Translations under genes and position numbers: made by a program | Part shown: positions 3,571-45,573 of the stretch, piece after piece | How the letters are laid out: each line of letters opens with the position of its first letter | How positions within the stretch are numbered: position 1 is the first letter of the stretch | Source of the DNA: Candidatus Undinarchaeota archaeon | GTDB lineage: Archaea > SpSt-1190 | DNA: 50,207 bases | NCBI GenBank assembly: GCA_964449215.1 | Contig: CAYVAH010000002.1 | Coordinates: 1 to 50,207, forward strand | Reading direction: 5' to 3' | Notes under the pieces: model-generated | Database searches by the model: none | Seen by the model: the letters and a program-made list of their open reading frames with translations, nothing else | Told to the model about the DNA's origin: nothing

Positions 3571-3628
3571 CAGCTATTTAGCACTATGGAATAAATATGC
3601 ATTTCTGTGAAATAAAAGAAAAGGGAGG

Positions 3629-3832: not shown

Positions 3833-3883
3833 CCCAATCACCTGAAAAAGCCATAATTGAGGATTTTTAACGTTTTCTAAAGG

Positions 3884-4396
3884 CTATCTGACCGTGGGAA
3901 GGAAGCCCACGAACTCCTGAAGGTCCTTCAGAATCTTCTCTGCGTCCTGCCTGATGGACATTATGTGGACCTGGCGCCTCCTTCTGTAGAAGTATGAGTC
4001 CCTTATGGCGAAAAAAGGCCGGAGGAGTATGCTTCCCGTCCAGTTGTTCAGGTAATCCGTAATCACAAAACCACTCATGGAAAGACCTACCGAACCTTTG
4101 GAGACCATGGGGGGGTTCTCCCCCTTGGATCCGGGTCGGGGAGCAGGAGACCACACGAGTCTCCACCTCAACTCGAGCCCTCCGAGAGCGTATTTTTTCT
4201 CAATCTCCTTCGTGGCAATCCACACCCCCACGGCAGCGTTTGCCCCGCCCTCATAGTAGCCGTGAGCGTATCTCCACTCGAGTATGCCATAGTTGAGGTC
4301 GCTTACAAAGTTCCACAGGGCCCTGTAAATGTCAGGCGGATAGTATCCCTCGTGTTCAAAGTTCAGGTCCCGGAATGCCCAGTATCTCACTCCCAT
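3884..4396 (-). CDS. conserved-looking hypothetical protein
   Basis: 170 aa ORF directly abutting the CBS gene; protein-like composition. Confidence 0.7.
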   Translation of the reverse strand: MGVRYWAFRDLNFEHEGYYPPDIYRALWNFVSDLNYGILEWRYAHGYYEGGANAAVGVWIATKEIEKKYALGGLELRWRLVWSPAPRPGSKGENPPMVSKGSVGLSMSGFVITDYLNNWTGSILLRPFFAIRDSYFYRRRRQVHIMSIRQDAEKILKDLQEFVGFLPTVR

Positions 4397-4813
4397 TCAA
4401 CCACCCATCCTGTTGACTTCACAGAGTATGTCCACTATTTCTGGAGTCACACCCACGATATCCTTGTCCGAGATTATCCCCACAACCCCCCTCGCATCTT
4501 CAACCACCACCCTGTGTATCCCTTCCCCGCGCATCAGCTTGGCGACCTCCATGACGGGGGTGGAAACTCCAACCTTCTTTAATGGGGAGCTCATGACTTC
4601 CCTTGCAGCTGTCTCTCCGGGAGCTTTCCCACTCGCAACAACCTTGACAACATCCATCTTTGTGATGATCCCCACGTAGGACCCTTTCTCGGAAACAAGG
4701 ACGCTACCTATTCTCTTCGAGACCATAATCCTGGCAACCTCTTTGATGGTAGCACCCACATCCACAGCCACCACCGGGGAGGACATTATATCCCCTGCGA
4801 CAACCTCTCTCAC
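4397..4813 (-). CDS. CBS domain pair protein
   Basis: DIMSSPVVAVDVGATIKEVARIMVSKRIGSVLV...VGIITKMD and a second copy EVMSSPL...VVGIISDKD. Confidence 0.93.
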   Translation of the reverse strand: MREVVAGDIMSSPVVAVDVGATIKEVARIMVSKRIGSVLVSEKGSYVGIITKMDVVKVVASGKAPGETAAREVMSSPLKKVGVSTPVMEVAKLMRGEGIHRVVVEDARGVVGIISDKDIVGVTPEIVDILCEVNRMGG

Positions 4814-4852
4814 AGCAGAATAAGGTTATAAGTTTATTAAAGTCTTTCTTAA

Positions 4853-5245
4853 GTGTATCGAAAAGGAGCGAGGGCAGAACGCCAGCTGATGGAAAAACTT
4901 AACAGGCTCGGGCTCGGTGCCCTGAGAGTGGCAGGCTCCGCGGGACCGGATGTCGTGTCCTCCATCGGCGGGCGGATTGTGTTCTTTGAGTGCAAGTTCA
5001 CCACCAAGGAAAAGGTTTATGTGCCAAAATCCGAGGTGGAAAGGGAGCTCAAAGTCGCCGAGAAGATGAAAGCCACGCTCTACCTGGCCGTGAAGTTCAA
5101 CAGGGAACCCTGGCACATAATTGAGGCCGGTCGGCTCCCGGAATTCAGCACCGAGAAAAGTTACGTCATCGGCAGGGCAGACCTGGCCCGGCTTCCAAAA
5201 CTGACGACAATCCTCGATAAAAATTTAAAGGACTACGACAAATAG
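4853..5245 (+). CDS. hjc: Holliday junction resolvase Hjc
   Basis: MYRKGARAERQL, LRVAGS-GPDVV, FFECK (PD-(D/E)xK). Confidence 0.92.
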   Translation: MYRKGARAERQLMEKLNRLGLGALRVAGSAGPDVVSSIGGRIVFFECKFTTKEKVYVPKSEVERELKVAEKMKATLYLAVKFNREPWHIIEAGRLPEFSTEKSYVIGRADLARLPKLTTILDKNLKDYDK

Positions 5246-5249
5246 CGAA

Positions 5250-5954
5250 GTGAAAGCCGAGAAGGTCGCGATGAAAATCGCCGGAGAGATCGTTCTCACA
5301 AACAATCCCGGGACCGTGATTCGGAAGTGGAGGGAAATTTTCGGGATATCCCAGAAAGAGCTGTCAAGGAAATTGAAAATAAGCTCCTCCGTCATATCGG
5401 ACTATGAGTCCGGGAGGAGAAAGTCACCTGGAACGAAGCTCGTGTCAAGGCTCGTGAAAGCCATGATGGAAATTGACGAGGAGCGGGGAGGAACGGTAAC
5501 ACAGGAATACAACAAGCTGATTGAAGGGACAAAGTTCTTTGAGGCCATACTGGCAATAAAGGAATTCTCGGAACCACGAAAGATAAAGGACATTGTCAAG
5601 TGTGTTGAAGGGGAGTTCCTCGTCGGCGAGAAGAACATGGACAATAACGTCTATGGCTATACTGTCATAGACAGCATAAAGGCAATAATGGACCTCAGCC
5701 CCCTCGAGCTCGCGATGATATACGGAACCACAACGCAAAGGGCTCTGATATTCACAGGAGTCAAGCATGGCAGGAGTCCGATGCTGGCGATAAAGCTCAC
5801 AAGCCTTAGGCCCTCTATGGTTGTGTTGCACGGCCCGATAAAGGACCCCGACCCGCTGGGAGTCGAACTCGCGAAGCGTGAACGCATTCCGCTCGTGCTT
5901 TCCCACGTAAGCGACGTTGAGAAGCTCGTGGAGAACCTGAGGGGACTCGATTGA
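5250..5954 (+). CDS. XRE-family HTH + DRTGG-like domain transcriptional regulator
   Basis: IRKWREIFGISQKELSRKLKISSSVISDYESGRRKSPG; C-terminal TTQRALIFTGVKHGRSPMLAIK. Confidence 0.88.
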   Translation: MKAEKVAMKIAGEIVLTNNPGTVIRKWREIFGISQKELSRKLKISSSVISDYESGRRKSPGTKLVSRLVKAMMEIDEERGGTVTQEYNKLIEGTKFFEAILAIKEFSEPRKIKDIVKCVEGEFLVGEKNMDNNVYGYTVIDSIKAIMDLSPLELAMIYGTTTQRALIFTGVKHGRSPMLAIKLTSLRPSMVVLHGPIKDPDPLGVELAKRERIPLVLSHVSDVEKLVENLRGLD

Positions 5955-6325
5955 AGGCGCAAACGACCATCGAGTTCATGGCAGTGCTGCTGATACTCAC
6001 AGCTTACATGGCAGTCGTTTTTTCCCTTTTTTCTTCGGCGAAGGGTTCCCTTGAGCAGGCAGCCGATCGAAAGCTCTGTGGGACGGTGGAGCGCTGGATG
6101 GAATTCATAGCCCAGCGCCCGGAAGGCACGGAAATCAAACTGGATTTGGCTCCATACAGGGGGAGACATCTGAAAGTTGAATGCGGGGATCGAACAAAGC
6201 TGAGCTATCCCTCGGGAAGCACAACAATCGGCATTCCTTCCACTTGCAACATCATGAACATCACCAAAAAAACCTGCATCTCGATGGAGAGCACAGGGGC
6301 AGGTGTGAGAATTGAGGTCTGTTGA
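5951..6325 (+). CDS. type IV pilin-like protein (class III signal peptide)
   Basis: MKAQTTIEF followed by a hydrophobic helix; Cys-containing globular domain. Confidence 0.7.
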   Translation: MKAQTTIEFMAVLLILTAYMAVVFSLFSSAKGSLEQAADRKLCGTVERWMEFIAQRPEGTEIKLDLAPYRGRHLKVECGDRTKLSYPSGSTTIGIPSTCNIMNITKKTCISMESTGAGVRIEVC

Positions 6326-6596
6326 ATTCCTCGTTGCTGTCGCACTTCTGCTGGTGGTCTATGGGTCACTCTACAGGCTCGCCTCGACACAGAAAGCGGC
6401 TGCGGAAGAAGCGCTGCGAGACTTCAACGATTCAATAAGGTATAGATGCGCAAATGCCATCGTGGCGAATCTCATAGCCTACGGGGAGCCCTTCGAATAT
6501 GCCGACTTTGAAAAACTCGACCCGTCCAGGCTGAAAGGGGTCAGGTATGACCCTGCAACCAACCGCTATACTTACAGGACCTACCCAAGGTGGTGA
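6312..6596 (+). CDS. putative pilin-like protein
   Basis: MRSVEFLVAVALLLVVY (SxEF plus hydrophobic helix), TTG start, overlaps the previous gene. Confidence 0.55.
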   Translation: MRSVEFLVAVALLLVVYGSLYRLASTQKAAAEEALRDFNDSIRYRCANAIVANLIAYGEPFEYADFEKLDPSRLKGVRYDPATNRYTYRTYPRW

Positions 6597-6597
6597 C

Positions 6598-6885
6598 GTG
6601 AAAGGACAGATAATTGAACTGATGTTCTACCCGTTTATGATGGTGAATCTTCTCCTCCTATTCCACTTCCTTTCTGCCGGAGAAATCGCTGAGATCGAAA
6701 GCTCCCGCTCTGTGCTTGAGTCCTCAGATGCCGCCATAGCCTCTTCGAACCTCGTGCTCCTGAACTGCACCCCCGATCACTACCTTGGCTGTGTCCGAAA
6801 TCCGGGGGACGGAAGCTACTATATCAGGAGGCTCGCCACCGACGGTGAAAGCGTAAAAGAATTAATATTCCCGGCACCAGGGTAA
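6598..6885 (+). CDS. putative pilin-like protein (class III signal peptide)
   Basis: GTG at 6598 with GGTGA SD gives MKGQIIELMFYPFMMVNLLLLF. Confidence 0.6.
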   Translation: MKGQIIELMFYPFMMVNLLLLFHFLSAGEIAEIESSRSVLESSDAAIASSNLVLLNCTPDHYLGCVRNPGDGSYYIRRLATDGESVKELIFPAPG

Positions 6886-6888
6886 AAC

Positions 6889-7137
6889 ATGAAGGAGATT
6901 GTGTTCAAGCCCGCTGTAATTGCCACCAGGCCGGACCAGAGTTTCGTCCTGAAGTTCCCGGGATTCACGCTGTCCCTCCTGTTCAGCAATGGCAAGCTAA
7001 ACGCTGAAGTCCTTGAGGGAACAAAGAGGTCCACCTTCGAAAGCGAGGTGAAGGACAACAGCGAAGAATTCGAAAAAATTGTGAACAAGCTTATGAAGAA
7101 TCTCAACACGGTCATGAGGATTGACCACAAAAAATAA
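6889..7137 (+). CDS. hypothetical protein
   Basis: 82 aa ORF, 3 nt after the previous stop. Confidence 0.6.
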   Translation: MKEIVFKPAVIATRPDQSFVLKFPGFTLSLLFSNGKLNAEVLEGTKRSTFESEVKDNSEEFEKIVNKLMKNLNTVMRIDHKK

Positions 7138-7160
7138 CTATCCTGCTGTGAAAGAGTTCT

Positions 7161-7316
7161 ATGTGGGTTTTTTACATTCCCGTTCCAAAGGGGGCCGGAA
7201 AGGCACTTGCCAGAAAGCTGATTAAGACAAAGAGGAAGTGCTCATCGTGAAAACGGCAAAACCAGAAAATCGAAGCGGAGGCGAATGAGGAATATGAAAA
7301 ATGGCTCAAGGCTTGA
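7161..7316 (+). pseudogene. cutA-like (divalent-cation tolerance protein) remnant with internal deletions/frameshifts
   Basis: Three pieces in order: MWVFYIPVPKGAGKALARKLI (frame of 7161), EEVLIVKT (shifted frame), EANEEYEKWLKA* (back in the first frame); these resemble the N-terminal, central and C-terminal parts of CutA. Confidence 0.5.
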
Positions 7317-10300
7317 AAAGCTCACAATGAAAGGCTTCAAGTCGTTCTCGAAGCAGACCTCCCTGATATTTTCTCCGGGGATAACCGCCATAGTTGGACC
7401 CAACGGCTCAGGGAAAAGCAACATCATAGACGCGATAAGCTTTGTCATGGGCAGTCTGAGCTTTTCTTCGCTGCGGGCCAAGAGCGCGGAAAATCTGCTC
7501 TACTTCGGAAAGACCAAAAAAGCGAGAGAAGCAGAGGTCGATCTGACCATCCGGGCTGACAGCCCAATAGCAGAAGATGGGGTCATAAGGCTGAACAGGA
7601 AGCTGTTGAGTGACGGAACAAGCATCTACAGAATAAATGGGAAGCGCTCAACCCGGCTCGCCACCCTCGACGCCCTTGCTTCGATTCACATTTTTCCGGA
7701 CAGCCACAACGTCGTTCACCAGGGGGAAATCACCAAGTTCATAAACATGACCCCCAGGGAGAGGCGCGAGCTGATTGAAGTCGTTGCGGGAATCGAGCTC
7801 TATGAAACCAAAAAGAGGAAGGCGATGACAGACCTTGAAAATGTCGAGGCAACAGCTGAAAAGGTCGAAGCGGTCCACAGCGAAAGAATGAGAATATTCA
7901 ACCGGTTGAAGGAAGAGCAAGAAAAGGTCAGGAGGTTCAACGAGCTCAAACAGCTTGAAGAAAGAGCAAGGTTCGGACTCCTGTTGAAGAAGATAGAAAG
8001 GCTGAAGGAAGATGCGAGGAGGTTGCTGGAGGAAAAAAACCTCAAGAAACAGGAAATCGAGCGGATCAATGAGGAGCTCGGAAAGAAGGCAGAGGAACTC
8101 TCCGAGCTCAACACCGCACTTGAAAAACAGGGAATGCGGGAAAAGGTCGAAACCATGACGAGGCTCGAAGGACTGAAGATGGAACTCAACAAGCTGGAAT
8201 CTGAAAAGGAAGAGGAAGCAAAGGGCATAGAAAAGGTAAAGAACAGGCTTGAGTCAATAAGGGCCCAGGTTGATGGGCTGAGGAGGAGAAAATCGGACAT
8301 CGTGCAGGAGCTGAAGGAGAAGAGAAAGCGGCTCGGGGAAGTGCAGGAAGAACTGAGGAAACTGAAGAAACTGAAGGACGAACTCGTGGCCAAACTTTCA
8401 GAAGCGAGACAGAACTATGAAAAACGGAAAAGGGAGTACGGGAGACTCAAGGAGAAGAAGGAAAAACTGGTGCTGAGAAGCAAGGAAGTCCAGCTGGAGA
8501 AGCGATCAGCAGAGGGCATCCTCGAGAACCTGTCGAATAAACTCAAGAGGGAGGAGGAGCGGAAACTGAAGCTCGAAGCCGCAAGAAAGAGAGCAATTGA
8601 GGAAAGAAAGGTCCTGGAGAGGGAAGCAGAGGAGATTAGAAGCAGGCTGGGTGCTGTGGAAAAGAGCATAGAGAAACTCCGGAAAAAAGAACGTGCCATA
8701 ATTCACTCATCCAGCCTCCCGGCAGGTGTGAGGGAACTCAAGGAAAAGGGCTTCAGGGTGCTGGGAGAGGTCGTCGAGGACCCGACGGGACTGATGCCCT
8801 TCGCGTTGAGTGTTGTGGTCCCTGAGAGTGAGGAACCAGAACTCGAGAGGGGATGGGCGTTCCTGTTACCCGAGAACTTCGACACAAAAAAACTCAGGGA
8901 ACTGTCAAGGCTTGGCAGACCCCTCGGGAGGATAACCCCCTATGAATTCAAGGGGGAAAAAGAGCGGGGCAGGGAACTCAAAGAAATCGAGCAGAAGCTG
9001 AAGGCGCTGGAAGGAGAAGCCTCTGCCCTTAGAAAAAGGAAGGTGGAAATAGAAGCCGTGCTCAGCAGGAAACTCGACCCACATGAGATGAAGTCCGTCC
9101 TGGACAGCATAAACTCCCTGAAAAAAGAAATTTCAAGGAGGAAAAGGAAAATCTCAGCCCTCGACAGGGAACTGGGAGAACTTGACAGTCAGATCTCAAA
9201 GATTGGGGAATTGAAGGAACCCGAACTGGAAGAGAAGAGTCGAATCGACGAGCTCACGTCAGACCTCCTCAAGCTTGAATCCGAGGCCATGAGGTTATCC
9301 TCGGAGATAAAAGCCGGAGAGAACACGCTGAAGAACCTGGTGGAGCCGGACATAAAAAGTTATGAAAAGCTTTGCAGGGAACTCCTCGAGGAAATAAAGC
9401 TGAGAAAGGGGCGAATCGGGGAACTGGACCGAAAGAAGGCAGAACTGCAAGGGAGGTTGGAGGGGCTCGAAGCAAAGGTTTCGGAGATAGACAGACACCT
9501 GAAGACCGGCCTCGGACGCAAGTCGGAACTTGAAGAGCTGATAAAGCAGTCCCAGACAAGGCTCTACCAGTTGAAGGCAGATATAACCGTCATAGATGAA
9601 AGATTGAAGGACATCCGTGCAAAGGTCGGCTCCCTCGAGGCATCGAAGCCCGGAGGCATCGAGCCCGTTGAAAATCCCGAAGCCGTTCTCAGGGAAGTGA
9701 CCGAGGAACTGGAGAAACTGGGAACATTGAACTTCAGGGCAACCGAAGAATTTGAGGAAATCAGCCGCATGGTCAAGGACATAAGTGACAGGCTGGAGAA
9801 GCTCAGGGAGGAGAGGAATGCCATACTGAAAATGATGGAGGAGATTGAAGAACAGAAAAGGCAGGTGTTCCTGGACACCTTCAAAAAGATAAACGATAAC
9901 TTCAGCAGAATATTCTCCGAGGTCATGGACGGCACGAGCAGGCTCGAGCTGGACAGCGAAGACCCATTCGAATCAGGAGTTCATATAAAAACAAATGTTC
10001 GCGGGAGAGACCTGCCCACCGAATCCCTTTCCGGGGGACAGAAAACCCTGGCAGCCATAGCACTCATATTCGCCATACAGGAAGTGAAGCCATCCCCATT
10101 CTACATATTTGATGAAGTTGATGCGGCACTGGATAAGGACAACAGCGAGAAGCTCGCTGCCATGCTGAAGGAAATGAGCAAGACCACACAGATAGTCACC
10201 ATCACGCACAACGACACGGTGGTGAGGGAATCGGACCAGATTGTCGGAGTGTACATGAAGGGCGGTTACAGCAGGCTCCTGAGCCTCCCGAAAGAAAAGG

Positions 10301-10371
10301 TGCTCGAAGAGGCGGATAGCTGGATAGGGAGAAAAGAAGAGCCTCAGGGATCACCTCCTTCTCATCAGTGA
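7285..10371 (+). CDS. smc: chromosome segregation protein SMC (short hinge)
   Basis: GFKSF, Walker A GPNGSGKSN, Q-loop VHQG, long coiled coils, signature LSGGQK, Walker B IFDEVDAALD, ITH. Confidence 0.93.
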   Translation: MRNMKNGSRLEKLTMKGFKSFSKQTSLIFSPGITAIVGPNGSGKSNIIDAISFVMGSLSFSSLRAKSAENLLYFGKTKKAREAEVDLTIRADSPIAEDGVIRLNRKLLSDGTSIYRINGKRSTRLATLDALASIHIFPDSHNVVHQGEITKFINMTPRERRELIEVVAGIELYETKKRKAMTDLENVEATAEKVEAVHSERMRIFNRLKEEQEKVRRFNELKQLEERARFGLLLKKIERLKEDARRLLEEKNLKKQEIERINEELGKKAEELSELNTALEKQGMREKVETMTRLEGLKMELNKLESEKEEEAKGIEKVKNRLESIRAQVDGLRRRKSDIVQELKEKRKRLGEVQEELRKLKKLKDELVAKLSEARQNYEKRKREYGRLKEKKEKLVLRSKEVQLEKRSAEGILENLSNKLKREEERKLKLEAARKRAIEERKVLEREAEEIRSRLGAVEKSIEKLRKKERAIIHSSSLPAGVRELKEKGFRVLGEVVEDPTGLMPFALSVVVPESEEPELERGWAFLLPENFDTKKLRELSRLGRPLGRITPYEFKGEKERGRELKEIEQKLKALEGEASALRKRKVEIEAVLSRKLDPHEMKSVLDSINSLKKEISRRKRKISALDRELGELDSQISKIGELKEPELEEKSRIDELTSDLLKLESEAMRLSSEIKAGENTLKNLVEPDIKSYEKLCRELLEEIKLRKGRIGELDRKKAELQGRLEGLEAKVSEIDRHLKTGLGRKSELEELIKQSQTRLYQLKADITVIDERLKDIRAKVGSLEASKPGGIEPVENPEAVLREVTEELEKLGTLNFRATEEFEEISRMVKDISDRLEKLREERNAILKMMEEIEEQKRQVFLDTFKKINDNFSRIFSEVMDGTSRLELDSEDPFESGVHIKTNVRGRDLPTESLSGGQKTLAAIALIFAIQEVKPSPFYIFDEVDAALDKDNSEKLAAMLKEMSKTTQIVTITHNDTVVRESDQIVGVYMKGGYSRLLSLPKEKVLEEADSWIGRKEEPQGSPPSHQ

Positions 10372-10400
10372 TCAGGTCAAGCCACTATCCTCATCGGCAG
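10341..10400 (-). ncRNA. candidate box C/D guide sRNA (guides complementary to the 16S 3' end and probably the 23S 5' end)
   Basis: Minus strand reads C box CCGATGA (10397-10391), guide GGATAGTGGCTTGAC, D' CTGA (10375-10372), C' TGATGA (10367-10362), guide GAAGGAGGTGATCC, D CTGA (10347-10344); TTATAA at 10420-10425 upstream; ends approximate. Confidence 0.8.
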
Positions 10401-10429
10401 TAATCCCTGTATGCTCTGCTTATAACCCT

Positions 10430-10612
10430 TTAGAAGTTGTCTTCAGAGAATTTTTCGTCGAACTCTTCTTCCAGTTCATCGAGGTCATCCTTGAACAAAG
10501 ACTTCCTGGTCTTCTTCTCCATGTCAGCCTCCTCCATCCCCTCGAGAAACCCCTGCTCCTCCCAAACCTCTTCCTCATCATACTGGTCTTCCAGCTCTTC
10601 TTCGCTGAACAC
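10430..10612 (-). CDS. small highly acidic protein
   Basis: 60 aa, 27 Asp/Glu; GTG start; TTAAAA-like element upstream. Confidence 0.65.
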   Translation of the reverse strand: MFSEEELEDQYDEEEVWEEQGFLEGMEEADMEKKTRKSLFKDDLDELEEEFDEKFSEDNF

Positions 10613-10700
10613 GTAGAAGAAGAGGGTGTCCGACTTTTAAGATTTGTGTTTAACTTTCTGGTTGTGCAAAGACCTAATGAAAAAACGACAGAAGTCGAAA

Positions 10701-11036
10701 TCAGCGCAGCCCGGTGCATCTCCAGTTTATTTCCGCCTCTCCGGTATTCACATCCACCACGCAAGCAGGACTGCAACCCGGCCGGTCAAGGTCCAGTTCA
10801 ATCCACCACGTTCCGGTGTAGGCATTGCACATCCTGAAATCTGTGAGGTTTCCCTCTGCACACTCACTTGCCAGAGCAATTGACCTCGCCATTTCCCAGC
10901 TCATATTGGCCCCGGTCCTGCTATCCACACAGGTATCTGCCAGTCCGCTCTGAAAGTCGGTGAAGCGCACGAGAATCCCAACAAACAGGAACAGCACAAT
11001 TAGCAACAACCCCCCAAGAACATACACCTTACTCAT
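10701..11036 (-). CDS. membrane-anchored Cys-rich extracellular protein
   Basis: N-terminal TM helix; six Cys; CNAYTGTWWIELDLDRPGCSPACVVDVNTGEAEINWRCTG. Confidence 0.75.
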   Translation of the reverse strand: MSKVYVLGGLLLIVLFLFVGILVRFTDFQSGLADTCVDSRTGANMSWEMARSIALASECAEGNLTDFRMCNAYTGTWWIELDLDRPGCSPACVVDVNTGEAEINWRCTGLR

Positions 11037-11072
11037 TCAAAACTCAGCCACCACCAATAAAAACGTTTCCGG

Positions 11073-11999
11073 TCAGGGGTCAACACCCCTTTTGCTGATC
11101 GGGGCAACCCGTGTGTTGTCCCACAGCTCCTCCAGCTCGGAGGAATACCTCCTGGGGGCAATCATATGGACGGTGGGCCCAGCATCAAGAGTATATATCA
11201 CAGGGACCCCGGAGCCCCGGAGATCAATCACCCTGGAAATAAGCTCCCCTGTTTCTCTGGTGAGGTAACTGAAAGGAGGGTCACTCGTTGCGGCTATCGC
11301 ATGTATGAGCATGGCATCGGTCTCCACAGGTCCTTCAAGAGCTGACATGTCCCGTTCCTGCACGGCCCGCTTTACCTCCCCAATCATACGGTCAACCAGC
11401 CCCATCCTGACCGTGTGCAGGGGACTTGAGTGAACGAGACGGTGAGCAGTTGCGGAACCGACGGCTTTTGGCCTGCTTGAAACGATGGCAACAACATCAA
11501 CGAGCCGCCAGTGCGAGGCGGGAAGGAAGGACTCGGCATACGACTCCTCATGGGAGTTGCCGGCATGCCATTCAACAAAGCCACCGAAAACCGAGCGGGA
11601 AGCGGAGCCGGAACCGAGGCGGGCAAGCCTGCTCAGCCCCGTGGAATCAAGACCCAGGGAAAACTGCTGGTCCAGCTCGGCGGCGAGCGAAGAAAAAACA
11701 GCCGCAGAAGCCGCTATCCCTACGGAGCGCGGGAAGTTCAGCTCAAACCTGACTTCAAAAGGTTTGATGCGATAGAACATTGAAGCTGTGCGGTAGAACT
11801 CCTCGAACCTCTCCAGAGCAGCACCCCTGAGTGGGGCATCATTGAACACCACACGAACCCTGTCATCAGGCCGGGCCTCGCACACCGAAGTGAGACCATC
11901 AAGCGTAAACGAAAAACTGGAATTCGTAGGAAGGTTCAACCCGGGGTCACGGGTTCCCCAATACTTTATCAGGGCTATGTTTGACCTGCCAACTGCCAT
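11073..11999 (-). CDS. mvaD: (di)phosphomevalonate decarboxylase, GHMP superfamily
   Basis: NIALIKYWG, LPTNSSFSFTL, GIAASAA, GSGSASRSVFGGFVEW, YTLDAGP. Confidence 0.9.
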   Translation of the reverse strand: MAVGRSNIALIKYWGTRDPGLNLPTNSSFSFTLDGLTSVCEARPDDRVRVVFNDAPLRGAALERFEEFYRTASMFYRIKPFEVRFELNFPRSVGIAASAAVFSSLAAELDQQFSLGLDSTGLSRLARLGSGSASRSVFGGFVEWHAGNSHEESYAESFLPASHWRLVDVVAIVSSRPKAVGSATAHRLVHSSPLHTVRMGLVDRMIGEVKRAVQERDMSALEGPVETDAMLIHAIAATSDPPFSYLTRETGELISRVIDLRGSGVPVIYTLDAGPTVHMIAPRRYSSELEELWDNTRVAPISKRGVDP

Positions 12000-12008
12000 A
12001 GAAATCGC

Positions 12009-12209
12009 TTATTTCTTGAGGGCTTTCATCATCGGCCGCCACATGAACACCACACCCAGCAAGCCGTACCAGTACCAGTCCAGACTGAGCAGGGGTGGCC
12101 ATAGCTTCGCCAGCATCAGCGCGAACGCGGCAGCACTCCACTTCACCAGCTTTATGTCCCACAGGTCCATTTCCTTCAACTTTCCCTCGGCCCATTCTTT
12201 GTATCCCAT
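12009..12209 (-). CDS. small membrane protein
   Basis: ATG at 12209, MGYKEWAEGKLKEMDLWDIKLVKWSAAAFALMLAKLWPPLLSLDWYWYG; two TM segments. Confidence 0.7.
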   Translation of the reverse strand: MGYKEWAEGKLKEMDLWDIKLVKWSAAAFALMLAKLWPPLLSLDWYWYGLLGVVFMWRPMMKALKK

Positions 12210-12272
12210 CTGAATCACCAAGGGACAGTAGCGGGGCGATATAAATAAATAAGTCCGGGAGGACTGAGAAAC

Positions 12273-12632
12273 GTGAAAGCCCTGGATTTGGGGCACCACC
12301 GACCGGAAAAAACCTTCATAACCTTTCTGGAAAGTGTCCGACTGGAACCTGAAGAACTCAACAGGCTCTCCATGGAAAAAATCGTGGAATACTTGCAGGA
12401 CTTTCGTGAGAAACCACGTGTCGAAAAGCTGAGCTATATCAGGTATGTAGTCAGGGAGTGTAGCAAAAGGGGATATCTGAACAAAGAATGCCTGAGAGCC
12501 CTTAAGCCCACGATAGAAGAGGCTGCCAGAGTCGAGGACGGCTACCTCGATATTGACAGGGCTGTGGAGCTCATGGAAGAACTCCTGCGGTCACCCGTGC
12601 TTTCCAAGTACGCACCATGGAAAAGATACTGA
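12273..12632 (+). CDS. hypothetical protein
   Basis: 119 aa helical-looking ORF after an AT-rich promoter region. Confidence 0.6.
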   Translation: MKALDLGHHRPEKTFITFLESVRLEPEELNRLSMEKIVEYLQDFREKPRVEKLSYIRYVVRECSKRGYLNKECLRALKPTIEEAARVEDGYLDIDRAVELMEELLRSPVLSKYAPWKRY

Positions 12633-12695
12633 TTTATCGACAACTGACTAACAAATATACGACAAACTATAAATAATGGCCCGAAAATTCTTCAC

Positions 12696-13883
12696 ATGGT
12701 CGATACAAAAGACGTGGAAGTCCTCCATGAGGATTTTGTGGAATATCATCCCAGCTGGGGAACAGAACCCATCAAGATAAACAGAAAAAAGGCCAGGGTG
12801 AACGTGGATGGTGTCGAATTATACTTTGAACTCCACTCGGCTGGAGAATCCGACAAAACCGTCCTTCTGGTTCATGGGTTGAGCTCTATAAACAAAACCT
12901 GGGATGAACTCCTGAGAAACGAACTCGCCGCAGCCGGTTACACAGTTGTGATACCCGACCTGCCGAACCACGGCAAGTCCGGATCAATGGACCAAAAAGG
13001 GCTGACAATTTACGACTACCCTGAGAAACTCCACAACAAGATGGAAAAGCTCGGGATCAAGGACTGGGTCACGGCATCCAGTTCGGGATCGGCACCATTC
13101 ATCATGGCGATGGCGGAGAAATACCCGGACAAGGTCAAGGGAGTCTTCAGCTCAGCACCTGTGTGCAAGGTTCGAGAGATTCCCGGGTTGAAATATCTGG
13201 GTTATCACATCACCAAAAATTTTCTTTGCCTGATAGACTTCTTCTGCAGGGACAAGTTCAACATAATGGAAAAAATAAAGAACTACCAAGCGAAGCACAG
13301 GTCCCAAACTGAAGCTGAAAAACGTCTATACCTCCACAGCGCAAAATATGACGCAAGCCGCGGCAAGAACCCCACATACAAACTGACGAACAAGGCATTG
13401 ATACGAACAATAAAGGGGTGGCACAAATATAAGCCAAAGGTTCCTGAAGAGGTGCCCTTCGCAATTCAGTTCTCTGAAAAGGACACTATTGCAAAGGTAA
13501 AGAAATTCACCCTTGTGAAAAATGCCATACTCCGAAAACTCTCCAGGTATGGCCTCGCAAAGCCACCGAAGGAAAAAACAGTTTTGGACCTTTTGGAAAA
13601 GCAAATAGAAAAATACACCGGGATTCACGGGGGGAGCAGACCCCATGTCTACCTGGTAACAGGAGAGGTGGGGCACCACATACAGAAGGAAGCACCGATA
13701 GCCTTCGCAGACAACATCAGGCACTTCATGGAGCAAATAGGTTATCTGCCAGAACAGTATAATGCAAAGAACAAAGGTGTCAGGGAGCTCGAAGGGCTAT
13801 ACCTCAGAGAGCACTTGGAGGATGAAGTGGGAAGAGTCGCTAGGAGGACAAGACACGAAGAATACAAAGCGATGGTGAGCTAA
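12696..13883 (+). CDS. alpha/beta hydrolase fold protein
   Basis: VLLVHGLSS, VIPDLPNHGKS, nucleophile elbow ASSSG, C-terminal GHHIQKEAP. Confidence 0.85.
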   Translation: MVDTKDVEVLHEDFVEYHPSWGTEPIKINRKKARVNVDGVELYFELHSAGESDKTVLLVHGLSSINKTWDELLRNELAAAGYTVVIPDLPNHGKSGSMDQKGLTIYDYPEKLHNKMEKLGIKDWVTASSSGSAPFIMAMAEKYPDKVKGVFSSAPVCKVREIPGLKYLGYHITKNFLCLIDFFCRDKFNIMEKIKNYQAKHRSQTEAEKRLYLHSAKYDASRGKNPTYKLTNKALIRTIKGWHKYKPKVPEEVPFAIQFSEKDTIAKVKKFTLVKNAILRKLSRYGLAKPPKEKTVLDLLEKQIEKYTGIHGGSRPHVYLVTGEVGHHIQKEAPIAFADNIRHFMEQIGYLPEQYNAKNKGVRELEGLYLREHLEDEVGRVARRTRHEEYKAMVS

Positions 13884-13942
13884 CCGTTCTCGCCCTTACC
13901 CGCTCCGCTCGTGCGGGTCACCTCGAAGCCGTTGACGATAAT

Positions 13943-13992
13943 GGGTGCCGGAGGCACCCCTGTTTTTTGCCAGCTTTTTTACAAAAAAGCTG
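13943..13992. terminator. hairpin + T-tract followed by a second inverted repeat (possible bidirectional terminator)
   Basis: GGGTGCC-GGA-GGCACCC (13943-13959) then TGTTTTTT; CAGCTTTTTT-AC-AAAAAAGCTG (13971-13992); lies between the convergent hydrolase and tRNA-Glu. Confidence 0.6.
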
Positions 13993-14065
13993 CCCCAAGC
14001 GGGATTTGAACCCGCGTCTCGGGATTGAGAGTCCCGAATCCTTGGCCGGACTAGACGATTGGGGC
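13991..14065 (-). tRNA. tRNA-Glu(CTC)
   Basis: GCCCCAA...TTGGGGC-A acceptor stem, CGGGA-CTCTCAA-TCCCG anticodon arm, GGTTCAAATC T arm; no encoded CCA. Confidence 0.95.
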
Positions 14066-14172
14066 TTCAGTGATTAGAGGGCGTTCCTGATTTTTAAGTA
14101 TTATCTGAACAAGGCTCAGACCATAATGAAATTACCCCACAAAATATAATAATCACCCGCACTCAGAATGCT

Positions 14173-14580
14173 ATGAGCACATATTACCCGAGCTATTACT
14201 GGGTGCAGCCAAACAATTACCCGCACCCACCACCGGCAAAGAACAAGTGGCTTCCCTGGATGATGATTTTCCTGCTCATAGTTGCTTCATTTTACACCAT
14301 CTACCTCTACATACAGCCAGACTTCGTGCTGGAAAGTGCAGCCTGCAGCAAGCAATACGTGGTCGTGCACCTCATCACCGCCAAAACCGGAAGGTTCTTC
14401 ATGGGGGACTTCTCCGTGAACATCGCCGGCAAGGAGTACACCAAGAAGCTGACGAGCACCGTGGCGGAGGGTGAAAAACTGGACGTGGTGTTCAAGGTCG
14501 CCCTCGCACCCGGAACCTATAGCGGGGAGGCATATTTCCGGGGAAACCTGCTCGGGGAGTTTTCATGCCAGGTCAGGTAG
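14173..14580 (+). CDS. membrane-anchored protein with beta-rich extracellular domain
   Basis: Tyr/Pro-rich N-terminus, one TM helix, alternating beta-strand pattern. Confidence 0.7.
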   Translation: MSTYYPSYYWVQPNNYPHPPPAKNKWLPWMMIFLLIVASFYTIYLYIQPDFVLESAACSKQYVVVHLITAKTGRFFMGDFSVNIAGKEYTKKLTSTVAEGEKLDVVFKVALAPGTYSGEAYFRGNLLGEFSCQVR

Positions 14581-14626
14581 CTTAAATTTATAATTGGGTG
14601 AAGGAAGGTTCTAAAGGTGTGTTCGG

Positions 14627-15163
14627 ATGTTTGAAATTGCAACGATGAGGCAAAATGTCAGGGTCCCCCCTGCAATCTGGAGAAAGGACATAAAGAGGGG
14701 GGTGAAGAGAGCCCTCTCCGAGCTTGAAGGCAAAGTTTCCAAGGCACACGGGATACTGCTGGCAGTCCTGAATGTGAAAACTGTCGGGGAGGGCAGGATA
14801 CTGCCGGGAGATGGTGCTGTTTACTATCCGGCAGTGTTTGAAGCCCTCATATTCCGGCCCGAACTTAATGAAGTGGTGGACAGCGAGGTCACGGACATGA
14901 CAGAATTCGGAGCCTTCCTGAGGGTCGGTGCCCTTGACGGCCTGGTGCACGTGAGCCAGGTCTCGGACGACTTTTTCAGTTACAGCAAGGAAGGGGTGAT
15001 CCAGGGAAAGAAAAGCAAGAAGGTCCTGAAGGTCGGGGACAAGGTCCGTGCCAGGATAATCAGCATAAGTTACAAGGCAGAGCCCGCCAAGCTCGGGTTG
15101 ACCATGCGCCAGCCCGGGCTCGGGAAGTGGGAATGGCTGGAGGAGGAGAGAAGTGGCAAGTAA
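14627..15163 (+). CDS. rpo7: RNA polymerase subunit Rpo7 (E')
   Basis: VRVPP, GEGRILPGDGAVYY, FGAFLRVGALDGLVHVSQV (S1 domain), KLGLTMRQPGLGKWEW. Confidence 0.97.
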   Translation: MFEIATMRQNVRVPPAIWRKDIKRGVKRALSELEGKVSKAHGILLAVLNVKTVGEGRILPGDGAVYYPAVFEALIFRPELNEVVDSEVTDMTEFGAFLRVGALDGLVHVSQVSDDFFSYSKEGVIQGKKSKKVLKVGDKVRARIISISYKAEPAKLGLTMRQPGLGKWEWLEEERSGK

Positions 15164-15341
15164 GAAGGTCTGCAGGAACTGCAGGGTGTTTGTCAGTGGG
15201 GATGCCTGCCCTATCTGTGGAGGAAAGGACTTCAGTTCGACCTGGGCAGGAATTGCAATAATAATTGATCCGACAAGCTCCGAGGTTGCGAAAAAGATGG
15301 GAGTTGATCTCCCCGGAAAATATGCTCTGAAGGTGAGATGA
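15153..15341 (+). CDS. spt4: transcription elongation factor Spt4 (RpoE'')
   Basis: CRNC...CPICG zinc ribbon, [19 protein letters not shown]. Confidence 0.96.
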   Translation: MASKKVCRNCRVFVSGDACPICGGKDFSSTWAGIAIIIDPTSSEVAKKMGVDLPGKYALKVR

Positions 15342-15691
15342 TGGAACTGAAAATAATCGAAGACAGGAAGAACCCCCTTCTTGAGAGGAGGGAGGTCAGG
15401 TTTCAGGTAACACATGAAGGAAAGCCGACACCACCAAAATATGAGGTGGCGGAAAAGCTTGCCGCGAAGCTCAACGCAAAAACCGAACTTATGGTAATAG
15501 AGCATTATACCACACAGTTCGGGAAGAACGTAAGCAACGGCATCTGCCTGATATACAAGAACGAGAAGGCAATGATTCGCGCAGAACCGACCAAGCTGGT
15601 GAACCCAAAGAAAAGACTGGGGTTAAAGGAAAAAGCCAGGGAGAAAGAGGAGGCGAAAGAAGGTGAAGCACAAGCCGAGCAAAAAGAGTAG
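15338..15691 (+). CDS. rps24e: 30S ribosomal protein S24e
   Basis: [27 protein letters not shown]; position in the rpoE operon. Confidence 0.95.
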
Positions 15692-15830
15692 CCTGTATGA
15701 GCTCAAGGAAGGCAAGCTCAACCGGACCCGCAGGTCCTGCCCGAAATGCGGACCGGGGGTGTTCCTGGCAAAACACGGCAACAGGGTGCACTGTGGAAGG
15801 TGTGGATACACCGAGTTCATAAAAGCTTAA
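15663..15830 (+). CDS. rps27ae: 30S ribosomal protein S27ae
   Basis: Manual translation (below the ORF-track cutoff): [55 protein letters not shown]. Confidence 0.95.
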
Positions 15831-15861
15831 ATTCTCCCCTTTGTTATCTGGAGGGGATGGG

Positions 15862-15999
15862 ATGAACACGATTGAGTTCCTTTGGTACGTTTTGCTGTTT
15901 GTCCTCAGCCTTTTTGCCGGGCTGCTGGCAGGTAACTTTTTCGGGGAAAGCAAAGCGGAGGAATCAAGATACAACTACTTGAGTGGTGGGAAAAAATGA
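15862..15999 (+). CDS. 45-aa single-TM microprotein
   Basis: MNTIEFLWYVLLFVLSLFAGLLAGNFFGESKAEE...; GGAGGGG SD; ATGA overlap with the next ORF. Confidence 0.6.
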   Translation: MNTIEFLWYVLLFVLSLFAGLLAGNFFGESKAEESRYNYLSGGKK

Positions 16000-16133
16000 T
16001 ATCCAAAACAGACCTGGTGGTGATTGCCGTCGGGTATGTGATGGGCCTGGCTCTTGGTTACTGGTATGGTATGAAATCCGGAACTCAGAGGTTCTGGAGG
16101 ATGCCAAGTGCGAGCTGGAAGGTGAGAAAGTGA
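15996..16133 (+). CDS. 45-aa single-TM microprotein
   Basis: MISKTDLVVIAVGYVMGLALGYWYGMKSG...; overlapping start/stop on both sides. Confidence 0.55.
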   Translation: MISKTDLVVIAVGYVMGLALGYWYGMKSGTQRFWRMPSASWKVRK

Positions 16134-16492
16134 TCCAGGTCGCTGTGGTCGGAGACCCCGAAGCAGCCTTCCACGCCGCCAAGAAGGGGCTGGCAGTCCT
16201 TGGTATAGAACCTGAGCTGGAGAGCCATGTATCGAAAGCCGGGGGGGTTTTCATATTCTTTGGGGACCGGAAGTGCAAGCTTTCAGTGGTCTTCAACAAT
16301 GTTGCTGACGCAGCCTCGAAGATGGTTGACTCCGCCGAAATTGTGATAATAGGGAAGGGAAGACTGGCAGAATTCACAAAAAGGGTGGCGGAAATAAAGG
16401 GGAAACAGTATGTCGAGGGCAGGGGAAAAGATGCTGTGGAAAAGGCAAAAGAAAAGCTCGTGAGGTTCAACCTGTTCGGCATCAAGTCTTAG
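16130..16492 (+). CDS. hypothetical alpha/beta protein (possibly derived from a small-GTPase fold)
   Basis: GTG at 16130 after GGTGA, overlapping the previous stop; MIQVAVVGDPE...AEIVIIGK...QYVEGRGKDAVEKA. Confidence 0.6.
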   Translation: MIQVAVVGDPEAAFHAAKKGLAVLGIEPELESHVSKAGGVFIFFGDRKCKLSVVFNNVADAASKMVDSAEIVIIGKGRLAEFTKRVAEIKGKQYVEGRGKDAVEKAKEKLVRFNLFGIKS

Positions 16493-17189
16493 GTGGCTCT
16501 TCCTCAGGGACAACCTCATCTTCCGGGATCTCCTCCAGATCGGCACCCTCAACCTCAGGAGCAACCTCCACCTTGGCGGGCTCCTCCTTCTCCTCTGCAA
16601 ACTTCTTCTTGATTTCATCGCTGAAATCCGCATCAGGGGGAAGTATCGCCACCCGGACGCCCACAATTCCCAGCTTTGTCATGGCCTCGGAATACGCCAC
16701 CTCCACCTGATCAACAGCCTCCTGACCGCATTTTCTCAGCTTCCCGGCGACAAACTTCCATGTCTTGGCCCTGGCACTCGGGAGCTTACCGCTCAGCCGC
16801 ACCTCGACTCCCTTCGCCCCGGATTGCATTATCCTTGTAACCATTATGTTAGCAATCCTCTTGAAATACCCGCCACGCTCAAGAGAGCGGGCGATTCTCC
16901 AGGCAACAATATGAGGGTCAAGGAAAGGCTCCTTGACCTGCTCGACCTCAAGGTGGGGGTTCTCCACACCGAACTTCGAGCTCACATAGGATGTCAGCTT
17001 CTTTATGCTGTCACCGCCGGAACCTATCACAATCCCGGGCCTGAGAGCGTGTATTATGATTCGCGTCCCGAGAGGGGTCTTTTTCACCTCGGCATGGCTG
17101 AACCCGGCAACCTCCAGCTCCTTTTTCAAGAATTCTTCTATGTCGTGAGCCTTCTTTGCCTCATTTATGAAAAATCTCTCCACCGTCAT
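16482..17189 (-). CDS. rps3: 30S ribosomal protein S3
   Basis: KTPLGTRIIIHALRPGIVIGSGG (KH domain), GAKGVEVRLSGKL, KLGIVGVRVAI. Confidence 0.97.
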   Translation of the reverse strand: MTVERFFINEAKKAHDIEEFLKKELEVAGFSHAEVKKTPLGTRIIIHALRPGIVIGSGGDSIKKLTSYVSSKFGVENPHLEVEQVKEPFLDPHIVAWRIARSLERGGYFKRIANIMVTRIMQSGAKGVEVRLSGKLPSARAKTWKFVAGKLRKCGQEAVDQVEVAYSEAMTKLGIVGVRVAILPPDADFSDEIKKKFAEEKEEPAKVEVAPEVEGADLEEIPEDEVVPEEEPPKT

Positions 17190-43796: not shown

Positions 43797-44726
43797 GTGG
43801 TAAAGCTCGCAAAAACGCCCTTCGGTTTCTTTGCCATTGAGGAGCCGAACCAGATTGTTGAAATGAAGGAGCTGCCCAGGAACGCCAAGGAGGTCGCAAA
43901 GCTCCTGACCGGTGATGCATTCGAAAAGTGGAAGGAAAAAATAAGCAAGAAATATGAGGTCGAAGCGGGGTTGATGGACCCGCTGCAGGTCGCTTCCCTT
44001 ATCGGTGTGAAGAGGAAGGAGTTTCTGGAGTTCACGCGCAAAGTGGAGCTCGAAGCGGCCAGGATACAGCTCAAAGGTGCAATCGGGAAGGACTACATAG
44101 TGATACAGGCTGTGTCCGGCCTGGACGATTTGAACAAGAGCATCAACATCATGCTCAACCGCATACGGGAATGGTACGGTCTGCACCACCCGGAGCTGAA
44201 GGAAGAGAACCACGAGAAGTTCCTGCGCATGGTGGTCGAAGGAAAGCGCAGGGAGAGCATGGGCATCGAACTATCTGAGGCCGACCGGAAGGCCATGGTC
44301 AACACCGCTAAAACGATACTTGAGATGTTCAAAACCAAAGAAAAGCTGGAGAAATATCTGGAGAAGCTCATGAGAGAGGTGGCACCCAACCTGACGGCTC
44401 TGGCAGGCCCAAACCTGGGAGCGCGACTTATCGAACGTGCCGGGAGCCTCAAGAACCTTGCGGAACTGCCTGCCAGCACAATCCAGGTCCTGGGGGCCGA
44501 GCGCTCCCTGTTCAAGCACCTGCAGAAGGGCACACCTTCTCCCAAGCATGGTGTGATATTCCAGCACCCGGTCGTGAACCGCGCGCCGAAATCCAAGAGG
44601 GGGAAGCTCGCGCGGACCCTGGCGGCAAAGCTCGCACTGGCCGCGAGGGTGGACTACTATTCCAAAGAGGTCAAGCCATTCCTCGTGAAGGAATGGGAAG
44701 AAAGGGTTAAGGAGGTGCTGTCTTGA
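43797..44726 (+). CDS. nop5: box C/D RNP protein Nop5 (Nop56/58)
   Basis: IREWYGLHHPEL, APNLTALAG, PASTIQVLGAE, PKHGVIFQHP, RGKLARTLAAK. Confidence 0.95.
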   Translation: MVKLAKTPFGFFAIEEPNQIVEMKELPRNAKEVAKLLTGDAFEKWKEKISKKYEVEAGLMDPLQVASLIGVKRKEFLEFTRKVELEAARIQLKGAIGKDYIVIQAVSGLDDLNKSINIMLNRIREWYGLHHPELKEENHEKFLRMVVEGKRRESMGIELSEADRKAMVNTAKTILEMFKTKEKLEKYLEKLMREVAPNLTALAGPNLGARLIERAGSLKNLAELPASTIQVLGAERSLFKHLQKGTPSPKHGVIFQHPVVNRAPKSKRGKLARTLAAKLALAARVDYYSKEVKPFLVKEWEERVKEVLS

Positions 44727-44944
44727 AATTCCCGGAATATGACGCCTTTGAAAAAATGATTATGGCTGTGATAGGCATCGTTACACTGCTGGGGTTCTAC
44801 TACGCCAGGACCATATATCGGATGGCACAGGAGATGGTCTATGAGCCCAACGTGATTCTCGGCGTGCTTCTGTTCATCATCCTTGAAGTCATGCTGCTCA
44901 ACGCCGTGCTCCTGTACTCAATGCTGAAGGGTCGGTCAAAATGA
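44723..44944 (+). CDS. small 2-TM membrane protein between nop5 and fibrillarin
   Basis: 73 aa, 4-nt overlaps with both neighbours. Confidence 0.65.
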   Translation: MKFPEYDAFEKMIMAVIGIVTLLGFYYARTIYRMAQEMVYEPNVILGVLLFIILEVMLLNAVLLYSMLKGRSK

Positions 44945-45573
44945 TCATAAGAATTGGCAGGGAACTTGCAACCGAGAACCTCGTCCCGGGACAGAGCGTT
45001 TATGGTGAACGGCTGATCCGCCGGAAGGGCAAAGAGTTCCGGCTCTGGAACCCGAAGCGCAGCAAGATAGCGGCGGCAATTCTCAAGGGCATGAAAGTCC
45101 CCTTCAAGGAGGACTGGAAGGTGCTCTACCTTGGTGTTGCCAGCGGGACCACCGCCTCGCACCTGAGTGACATCATCCGCAAAGGAATGATATTCGGCGT
45201 TGACCCAGCACCCCGCGTGCTGCGGGAGTTCCTCCTCCTGTCCGAGACCCGGCCCAACCTGGTGCCCTTGCTCAAGGATGCCAACCGACCGGAGTCCTAC
45301 CGGGACGTGGTGCCGGAGGTGGACTTTCTCTACCAGGACGTCGCCCAGCCAAACCAGGCACAGATACTCGTCAAGAACGCCAACATGTACCTCAAGCGGG
45401 GCGGGCTGGCATTCGTCGCCGTCAAGTCCCGCAGTATAGATGTAACAGCGAACCCGAAAAAGGTCTTCAACAGGTTCAAGCGCGAGCTTCACGGGCTGGA
45501 AATACTCGACGAGAAGCGACTGGAGCCATTCGAGAAGGACCATCTGGCGTTGCTGTTGAGAAAGACCAAGTGA
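44941..45573 (+). CDS. flpA: fibrillarin (box C/D 2'-O-methyltransferase)
   Basis: WNPKRSKIAA, VLYLGVASGTTASHLSD, DANRP, DVAQPNQA, LEPFEKDH. Confidence 0.97.
   Translation: MIIRIGRELATENLVPGQSVYGERLIRRKGKEFRLWNPKRSKIAAAILKGMKVPFKEDWKVLYLGVASGTTASHLSDIIRKGMIFGVDPAPRVLREFLLLSETRPNLVPLLKDANRPESYRDVVPEVDFLYQDVAQPNQAQILVKNANMYLKRGGLAFVAVKSRSIDVTANPKKVFNRFKRELHGLEILDEKRLEPFEKDHLALLLRKTK

Follow-up and report, generated by a model that had tools for sequence, protein, structure and literature searches.

A candidate double-guide box C/D sRNA of the sR13 type in an Altiarchaeota-like clade, predicted to pair with 16S rRNA at helix 44 and at the anti-Shine-Dalgarno tail

The contig CAYVAH010000002.1 (50,207 nucleotides (nt); assembly GCA_964449215.1, Candidatus Undinarchaeota archaeon), referred to below as the window, meaning the whole stretch of DNA that was analysed, carries a box C/D small RNA (sRNA) gene of about 58 nt on the minus strand, from 10398 to 10341. 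The minus strand between 10400 and 10339 reads CUGCC GAUGAGGA UAGUGGCUUGAC CUGA UCAC UGAUGA GAAGGAGGUGAUCC CUGA GGCUC. The gene has a short terminal stem; a TATA-like element and a small acidic open reading frame (ORF) lie upstream, and a T-rich tract follows it, and a convergent gene for an Smc-like ATPase overlaps its 3' part (Table 1). The locus is very probably a canonical double-guide archaeal box C/D sRNA, orthologous to sR13 of Nanoarchaeum equitans. Its two guides appear to be directed at two segments of the small-subunit rRNA, namely the 16S 3' tail with the anti-Shine-Dalgarno (anti-SD) sequence and the decoding site in helix 44.

Table 1. Elements of the sRNA gene and the protein-coding genes discussed in the text, in window coordinates.
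Feature	Position	Strand	Sequence or size	Remarks
Small acidic ORF	10430..10612	-	60 amino acids (aa)	conserved; GFLEGMEEA motif; directly upstream of the sRNA
TATA-like promoter element	10420..10425	-	TTATAA	21 nt upstream of the 5' stem GCC, just past the end of the small acidic ORF (stop codon)
Terminal stem, 5' half	10396..10398	-	GCC	pairs with GGC 10341-10343; 3 base pairs (bp)
C box	10388..10394	-	AUGAGGA	one deviation from RUGAUGA; placed by Rfam alignments and regular expression
D' guide	10376..10387	-	UAGUGGCUUGAC, 12 nt	predicted target 16S helix 44, E. coli 1405-1416 (GUCAAGCCAC..)
D' guide position +5	10380	-	U	5th nt upstream of box D'; would pair with 16S 1409
D' box	10372..10375	-	CUGA	exact
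D'-C' loop	10368..10371	-	UCAC	opposite strand: smc stop codon 10369-10371
C' box	10362..10367	-	UGAUGA	exact
D spacer	10348..10361	-	GAAGGAGGUGAUCC, 14 nt	core AAGGAGGUGAU complementary to 16S 1531-1541 (AUCACCUCCUU), includes the anti-SD
D guide position +5	10352	-	G	5th nt upstream of box D; would pair with C1533
D box	10344..10347	-	CUGA	exact
Terminal stem, 3' half	10341..10343	-	GGC	
T-rich tract	10327..10340	-	UCUUCUUUUCUCCC	3' of the sRNA; plausible archaeal oligo-T terminator (putative function)
smc	7285..10371	+		hingeless Smc-like ATPase; convergent to the sRNA
Nop5	43797..44726	+		Nop domain, Pfam PF01798, E = 1.6e-58; C/D sRNA protein partner
Fibrillarin	44941..45573	+		Pfam PF01269, E = 2.3e-79; 2'-O-methyltransferase of the C/D ribonucleoprotein (RNP)

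Pyrococcus C/D covariance models from Rfam (sR2, snoPyro_CD, sR1, sR44 and others) span the gene end to end, from 10398 to 10341. Their scores are weak and generic and all lie under the gathering thresholds (26 bits for sR2, 24.7 bits for snoPyro_CD), which is expected because these families are defined largely by their guides. At gathering thresholds, the 50-kb window contains no C/D family and three tRNAs only; the sRNA family is therefore absent from Rfam. The models set the C box at AUGAGGA (10394-10388), a variant identical to the sR44 consensus, so that the D' guide has the canonical 12 nt and not 15 nt. This corrects a preliminary description of the locus that had been drawn from the sequence alone: within the complete C/D'/C'/D layout proposed there, the D', C' and D boxes and the 14-nt D spacer stand, but the C box, read as CCGAUGA, was 3 nt out of register, and the 15-nt D' guide falls with it. 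Other elements of that description are borne out, namely the TTATAA upstream of the sRNA (10425-10420, kept in relatives), the position antisense to the end of smc (seen in the window lineage only), and the presence of Nop5 and fibrillarin genes in the window. The Infernal comparison that it had called for was made with the Rfam models and delivered the end-to-end C/D alignments described above, if only below threshold and in generic form.

A relaxed regular expression for the C/D'/C'/D layout, applied to both strands of the window, has a single match, which is the sRNA site. In dinucleotide shuffles, 0.08 matches are expected per window, and 13 of the 200 shuffles contain at least one. Single-strand folding of the sRNA gives no significant structure (z ~0), as is expected for guide RNAs. 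Measured against the norm of about 12 nt for guide spacers, the D' spacer has 12 nt and the D spacer 14 nt, which is above the norm yet kept in the clade.

Conservation was assessed by comparing the window with the smc neighbourhoods of six relatives (L002, L005, L007, L025, L026 and L046), whose Smc proteins share 68, 58, 56, 53, 39 and 38% identity with that of the window. The sRNA gene is found in all seven lineages, on the strand opposite smc and directly downstream of the small acidic ORF. The search of related genomes proposed at the outset thus adds six further lineages in which boxes and guide cores are kept; in the smc neighbourhood of a relative with a 34%-identical Smc, the sRNA was not found. 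The C box conforms to xUGAxGA throughout, the relatives having AUGAAGA, GUGAGGA, AUGAUGA or GUGAAGA. The D' box is CUGA except in L005 (CCGA), the C' box is UGAUGA or, with the register unchanged, UGAGGA (L005 and L007), and the D box CUGA is unchanged in all homologs. The 11-nt core of the D guide, AAGGAGGUGAU, is likewise unchanged in 7/7 lineages; the two nt adjoining box D vary freely (CC, AC, AA, CA, AU), and the spacer keeps its 14 nt throughout the clade. The D' guide UAGUGGCUUGAC is identical in four lineages (window, L002, L005 and L007), and the three most distant ones (L025, L026 and L046) have the variants CAGUGGCUUGACU, UAUUGGUUUGACG and GAUUGGCUUGACG in a 13-nt spacer.

Other parts of the gene are less strictly kept. 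The D'-C' loop has 3-5 nt in most lineages, and 21 nt in L005 and 17 nt in L007, where it contains an internal hairpin. Six lineages have GCC/GGC as their terminal stem; in L025, a compensatory double change gives ACC/GGU. A promoter-like box stands some 21-28 nt upstream across the lineages: GTTATAA(G/T) is kept at the window's distance in L002, L005 and L007, and AT-rich boxes occupy a similar distance in L025, L026 and L046. T-runs follow the sRNA at the matching place in most relatives. Judged from these alignments, boxes and guides are constrained while the rest drifts, as expected of a functional guide RNA.

One relative shows a local irregularity. In L007 (metagenome-assembled genome (MAG) GCA_018221025.1, 13050-13160, minus strand), a second copy of the sRNA's 3' end and trailer (GTGATAACTGAGGCATCATA...) stands about 100 nt downstream, with a GC-rich hairpin between the two copies, which suggests that the gene was partly duplicated or rearranged.

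The conservation pattern also bears on the suspicion that the box motifs fell by chance around an SD-like sequence, or that the transcript is a cis-antisense regulator of smc. The box layout by itself turns up in shuffled windows (6.5% of them), GGAGGTGAT is frequent among the SD motifs of the genome, and the sRNA overlaps the 3' end of smc, being antisense to its last nine codons and stop. Against this, the whole unit is kept in seven lineages and in N. equitans, and the SD-like sequence serves no downstream ORF. The overlap itself is found in the window lineage only, where a non-conserved tail at the C-terminus of Smc (..EEPQGSPPSHQ*) runs through the sRNA gene; the other lineages have the sRNA outside smc, with an 810-aa gene between the two in L046. 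Chance and cis-antisense regulation are refuted by this pattern, and what probability they keep is vanishingly small.

The targets of both guides were assigned from homology and from published archaeal 16S sequences. In Additional file 4 of Dennis et al. 2015 (PMC4644070), which prints seven archaeal 16S sequences, the 3' ends read GGAUCACCUC(C/A)(U/A/C), and that of N. equitans reads GGAUCACCUCCU, to which the D guide is complementary. With GGAUCACCUCCU(U), the D guide forms 10-13 bp, with G:C1533 at +5; the calculated D-guide duplexes have energies of -17 to -23 kcal/mol, with -22.4 kcal/mol for the archaeal 16S tail. Of the 41 called genes, 14 have an SD motif of 5 nt or more (GAGGTGAT, AGGTGAT, AAGGAGGTG) a few nt ahead of the start codon, and the organism's own 16S tail should therefore be canonical. 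At the level of sequence, it is confirmed that the D guide covers the anti-SD tail of 16S; on this point the preliminary description agrees with the archaeal 16S ends, the invariant core and the homology to sR13, and C1533 is the D+5 nt, as it had stated. Cm1533 is present in Ignicoccus hospitalis, where the guiding sRNA is unknown (Seistrup et al. 2017, PMC5389701).

Both guide cores recur, in equal order, in N. equitans sR13, GATGATGTAGGTGGCTTGACTCTGATTAGTGATGAGAGGAGGTGATACTGATAG (sRNA table of Dennis et al. 2015, PMC4644070), which has the same architecture and, upstream, an AT-rich TATA-like box. The D' guide is common to the two RNAs (GTGGCTTGAC; core GUGGCUUGAC identical, directed at 16S 1405-1414), as is the D guide (AGGAGGTGAT; core AGGAGGUGAU identical, directed at the anti-SD), whose core the clade extends to AAGGAGGUGAU. 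In N. equitans, 45,100 RNA-seq reads were assigned to sR13, and its D' target was predicted with PLEXY as Neq 16S-1373, CGUCAmAGCCACCC (Randau 2012, PMC3491384). Dennis et al. (PMC4644070) list the D' site as E. coli A1408, in common with Sulfolobus acidocaldarius sR129, and give the helix 44 letters of N. equitans as CCGCCCGUCAAGCCACCCGAG.

In the rRNA of N. equitans, Seistrup et al. 2017 (PMC5389701) detected Am1408, Am1409, Gm1508, Um1528, Gm1530 and Am1534 by matrix-assisted laser desorption/ionisation mass spectrometry (MALDI-MS), confirmed by RiboMeth-seq, and Cm1402 by RiboMeth-seq alone. Am1408 and Am1409 were assigned to the D' guide of sR13 and Am1534 to its D guide; the RNA pairs with 16S 1405-1415, its D' guide serving A1408 and presumably A1409, and the methylation of 1409 with one known guide was left unexplained (PMC5389701). 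The same authors proposed that sR13 retards the folding of helices 44 and 45 and so provides an RNA-based substitute for the RsmA/Dim1 checkpoint in N. equitans, which is without RsmA/Dim1 (PMC5389701). The pair of helix 44 and anti-SD, together with a proposed folding or checkpoint role, had therefore been published in 2017, and the initial view that no archaeal guide with such a combination of targets had been described does not hold for the actual pair.

The small differences in spacing between the two RNAs translate into different predicted sites. In sR13, the D spacer has 12 nt, with one nt between GAU and box D, corresponding to Am1534; in the window clade it has 14 nt, with two nt between GAU and box D, and C1533 is the predicted site. 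Similarly, the D' spacer has 13 nt in sR13 and in the three distant lineages, corresponding to 1408, and 12 nt in the window and three further lineages, for which 1409 is predicted. Such one-nt shifts of the ruler (1409 for 1408, 1533 for 1534) fit the published puzzle of 1408 and 1409 being served by one guide.

For the D' guide, the inferred target is 16S 1405-1416, in helix 44 at the decoding site. With N. equitans GUCAAGCCAC the guide forms 10 bp, with U:A at +5, and the duplex of the window guide with N. equitans 16S helix 44 is calculated at -17.9 kcal/mol. The preliminary description had looked elsewhere, matching the guide to positions 2-16 of E. coli 23S rRNA, and had drawn from this the picture of an RNP that holds the 16S 3' end with its D guide and the 23S 5' end with its D' guide, clamping the mature ends that flank the spacer as a chaperone in the manner of U3/U8. 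The resemblance is real: GUCAAGCCACUA is similar to the 23S start of several organisms, Thermoproteus tenax 23S begins ..GGUCAAGCCGCCC, and the duplex with this 5' end comes to -17.2 kcal/mol, near the value for N. equitans helix 44. GUCAAGCCACUA agrees with the E. coli 23S start in 10/12 positions, and the earlier count of 11/15 is arithmetically right; 23S is not the best-supported target.

N. equitans is the sole organism with both a homologous sRNA and known rRNAs. There, the sR13 guide pairs poorly with the 23S 5' end (-10.9 vs -22.3 kcal/mol with 16S helix 44), and the methyl groups are found at 16S 1408 and 1409. Further points against the clamp come from the variation of the guide itself. 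In L026 and L046, the extra guide nt adjoining D' is a G, a potential partner of the universal 16S C1404 and a misfit to the G that precedes GUCAAG in T. tenax 23S. According to a published alignment, the 5' strand of 23S differs among related archaea, in contrast to a guide that is invariant in four lineages. The lineage-variable positions of the D' guide face 16S 1410 and 1414-1416, which are also variable among published 16S sequences, and no variation is seen opposite the conserved GUCA and CCA. A guide that tracks the rRNA at this site is likewise seen in S. acidocaldarius, where sR129 (GUGGAGCGAC) matches its own helix 44 (GUCGCUCCAC).

Two scans addressed the two candidate targets. A search of one genome per species (185,579 species) for GTCAAGCCACTA N{0,20} GGTGGAT, as the 23S test, returned 17 matches, of which most are bacterial; in the six loci checked there was neither rRNA nor any other Rfam family, and the organism titles of the remaining matches gave no sign of this lineage. 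For helix 44, metagenomes were scanned with the full 12-mer CACCGCCCGTCAAGCCACTR (CACCGCCCGTCAAGCCACT[AG]); 13 of the 14 matches are 16S genes that have it near position 1400, and the motif can therefore occupy 1405-1416. No rRNA motif was seen in the syntenic loci of the relatives or on the contig matching the far end of the window, and scans of viral contigs gave no archaeal 16S with the motif. Two viral-contig matches to a loose sRNA pattern lie inside a coding region, have no C/C' boxes and were set aside as chance. Taken with the orthology to sR13, its pairing with 16S 1405-1415 and Am1408/Am1409, the result of the 23S scan makes the clamp between 16S and 23S improbable, and a D' target at the 23S 5' end is not supported; a secondary 23S 5'-end interaction may still occur in this lineage.

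The assignment to 16S helix 44 and the anti-SD tail has its own weak sides, and five points weigh against it. The D spacer has 14 nt instead of the usual 12. Pairing was deduced from homology and from other archaea rather than from the organism's own 16S and 23S. The duplex of the window D' guide with the T. tenax 23S 5' end is almost as strong as that with helix 44. The 16S genes found in the metagenome scan are all bacterial, as judged by flanking sequence and spacer tRNA-Ile, and none belongs to this lineage; the two 5'-most guide nt (UA) may therefore be unpaired if the lineage reads ..GCCACCC like N. equitans. Finally, expression and methylation in the window lineage are attributed by homology, with N. 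equitans as the only homolog for which methylation (at 1408, 1409 and 1534) is experimentally shown. If the assignment to 16S is right, the 16S rRNA of this organism should carry GUCAAGCCAC at 1405-1414 and AUCACCUCCU at its 3' end.

A mechanism can be outlined on the model of sR13. The sRNA would be transcribed from its own TATA box and assemble with L7Ae, Nop5 and fibrillarin. Its D' guide would pair with the 5' strand atop 16S helix 44 (1405-1416) and direct 2'-O-methylation at 1409 in the window lineage and at 1408 in the relatives with a 13-nt spacer; its D guide would pair with the single-stranded 3' tail (1531-1541) and direct methylation of C1533. As the two sites bracket helices 44 and 45, the bound RNP would hold the 3' minor domain open, and its release could time late 30S folding, as hypothesised for sR13 by Seistrup et al.

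Besides methylation, or instead of it, the RNA could act by occupancy. On 30S subunits that are immature or idle, the anti-SD would be covered by the D guide, as a 'super-SD', and the decoding site by the D' guide, and the RNP would serve as an assembly checkpoint or a translation regulator. The invariant core AAGGAGGUGAU spans the whole anti-SD to U1541, which is beyond what methylation needs, and the D spacer of the clade is 14 nt long; the N. equitans homolog is abundant (45,100 reads), the organism uses SD-led initiation, and the proposal of sR13 as a brake on helix 44/45 folding in place of RsmA/Dim1 points the same way. All of these features, however, would also be seen in a plain methylation guide whose box+5 position forms a Watson-Crick pair, and occupancy as the distinguishing function is rather unlikely. 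A role in folding delay or masking would be plausible.

The surroundings of the gene are themselves partly conserved. The small acidic ORF adjoins the sRNA upstream in every lineage; it encodes 53-69 aa with an invariant F..GMEEA motif, has no Pfam match, and its co-transcription with the sRNA is possible. On the other side, the Smc proteins of the clade have about 1,000-1,040 aa, compared with about 1,170 aa for archaeal Smc further down the match list, and show no precomputed match to the Pfam SMC-hinge (PF06470). The closest named Smc relative (56% identity) is that of MAG GCA_018221025.1, labelled Candidatus Altiarchaeota archaeon.

Several observations concern the rest of the window. Between Nop5 and fibrillarin lies a 73-aa ORF (44723-44944, plus strand) that has no Pfam match and is also called as a gene on the European Nucleotide Archive (ENA) contig; it is preceded by the strongest SD of the window, AAGGAGGTG, 5 nt before its TTG. 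Directly past fibrillarin, a 159-aa ORF (45607-46086, plus strand) has a precomputed match to PF10706, an aminoglycoside resistance family. Its place beside the methylation machinery is curious in that the sRNA targets the aminoglycoside-binding nt 1408/1409; this may be coincidence. At 22912-23017 (plus strand), Rfam finds a tRNA of 106 nt (61.9 bits) where ARAGORN finds none, which suggests an intron-containing tRNA with some 30 extra nt. Many first genes have an AT-rich box about 25 nt upstream and no SD, and look leaderless, and internal genes carry SD motifs; initiation therefore appears to be mixed-mode. Window positions 1-17500 match k141_898795 and 39100-50207 match k141_512297, both contigs of ENA assembly ERZ27248458; the window therefore comes from a separate assembly with longer contigs, made from that population or a nearly identical one.

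The kind of RNA, the target pair and a mechanism are already in the literature, and the discovery is modest. Its new point is that the sR13 type extends outside Nanoarchaeota, into an Altiarchaeota-like clade. Few parts of the small subunit carry as much function as the decoding site and the anti-SD tail, and a single RNA pairing with both has, as far as found, been described only in N. equitans, in connection with the loss of RsmA/Dim1. Full-text searches with the guide and target strings returned unrelated primers only, and a literature search for the anti-SD combined with box sRNA or fibrillarin found nothing relevant. Invariant guide cores across the Altiarchaeota-like clade suggest an older and more widespread ribosome-maturation factor.

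The retention of an sR13-type RNA in a second, distant lineage that is not hyper-reduced and uses SD sequences may also bear on the replacement of the RsmA/Dim1 checkpoint, a tentative suggestion on which little weight is placed here. The presence or absence of RsmA/Dim1 in the genomes of the clade offers a simple comparative test of the substitute hypothesis. If the clade, too, is without RsmA/Dim1, the idea of an RNA checkpoint generalises; if it has the enzyme, the idea needs revision, and the 11-nt 'super-SD' may point to masking of the anti-SD. No RsmA/Dim1 domain was found among the window and locus proteins scanned, a 50-kb window being unable to show absence.

Among known systems, sR13 is the closest, and the differences from it beyond spacing are few: the window clade has a 3-bp terminal stem where sR13 has none, and the genomic neighbours and the host (Altiarchaeota-like vs Nanoarchaeota) are different. 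Single elements of the target pair occur in other guides. S. acidocaldarius sR129 and I. hospitalis sR56 guide position 1408 and N. equitans sR20 guides Gm1530, next to the anti-SD, but none of them joins a helix 44 guide and an anti-SD guide in one RNA: in sR129, helix 44 is served by the D guide, and the second guides of sR56 and sR20 are directed at U1380 and at 23S Cm1920. The D' guide of sR20 (AAAATGATGAAGGTGATCCAGCCTGA...) is complementary to 16S GCUGGAUCACCU; it was given as 'no prediction' in Randau 2012 and later linked to Gm1530. No counterpart of sR20 was seen in the window.

In using one RNP with two guides on separated segments of one rRNA, the window sRNA is like N. equitans sR15 and sR17, which are directed at 16S helices 28 and 30 and for which release after methylation was proposed to time folding (Dennis et al. 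2015, PMC4644070). It is unlike them in that about 125 nt separate its two sites, with helices 44-45 between them, and in that a delay of folding is proposed and not the joining of strands. A more distant likeness is to eukaryotic U3/U8, which are also box C/D RNPs that base-pair with pre-rRNA during assembly. U3/U8 do not methylate; through dedicated 5' domains they bind spacer as well as mature sequences. The window sRNA, in contrast, is a canonical guide of compact form: actual methyl groups are linked to its homolog, and pairing between rRNAs is unsupported for it.

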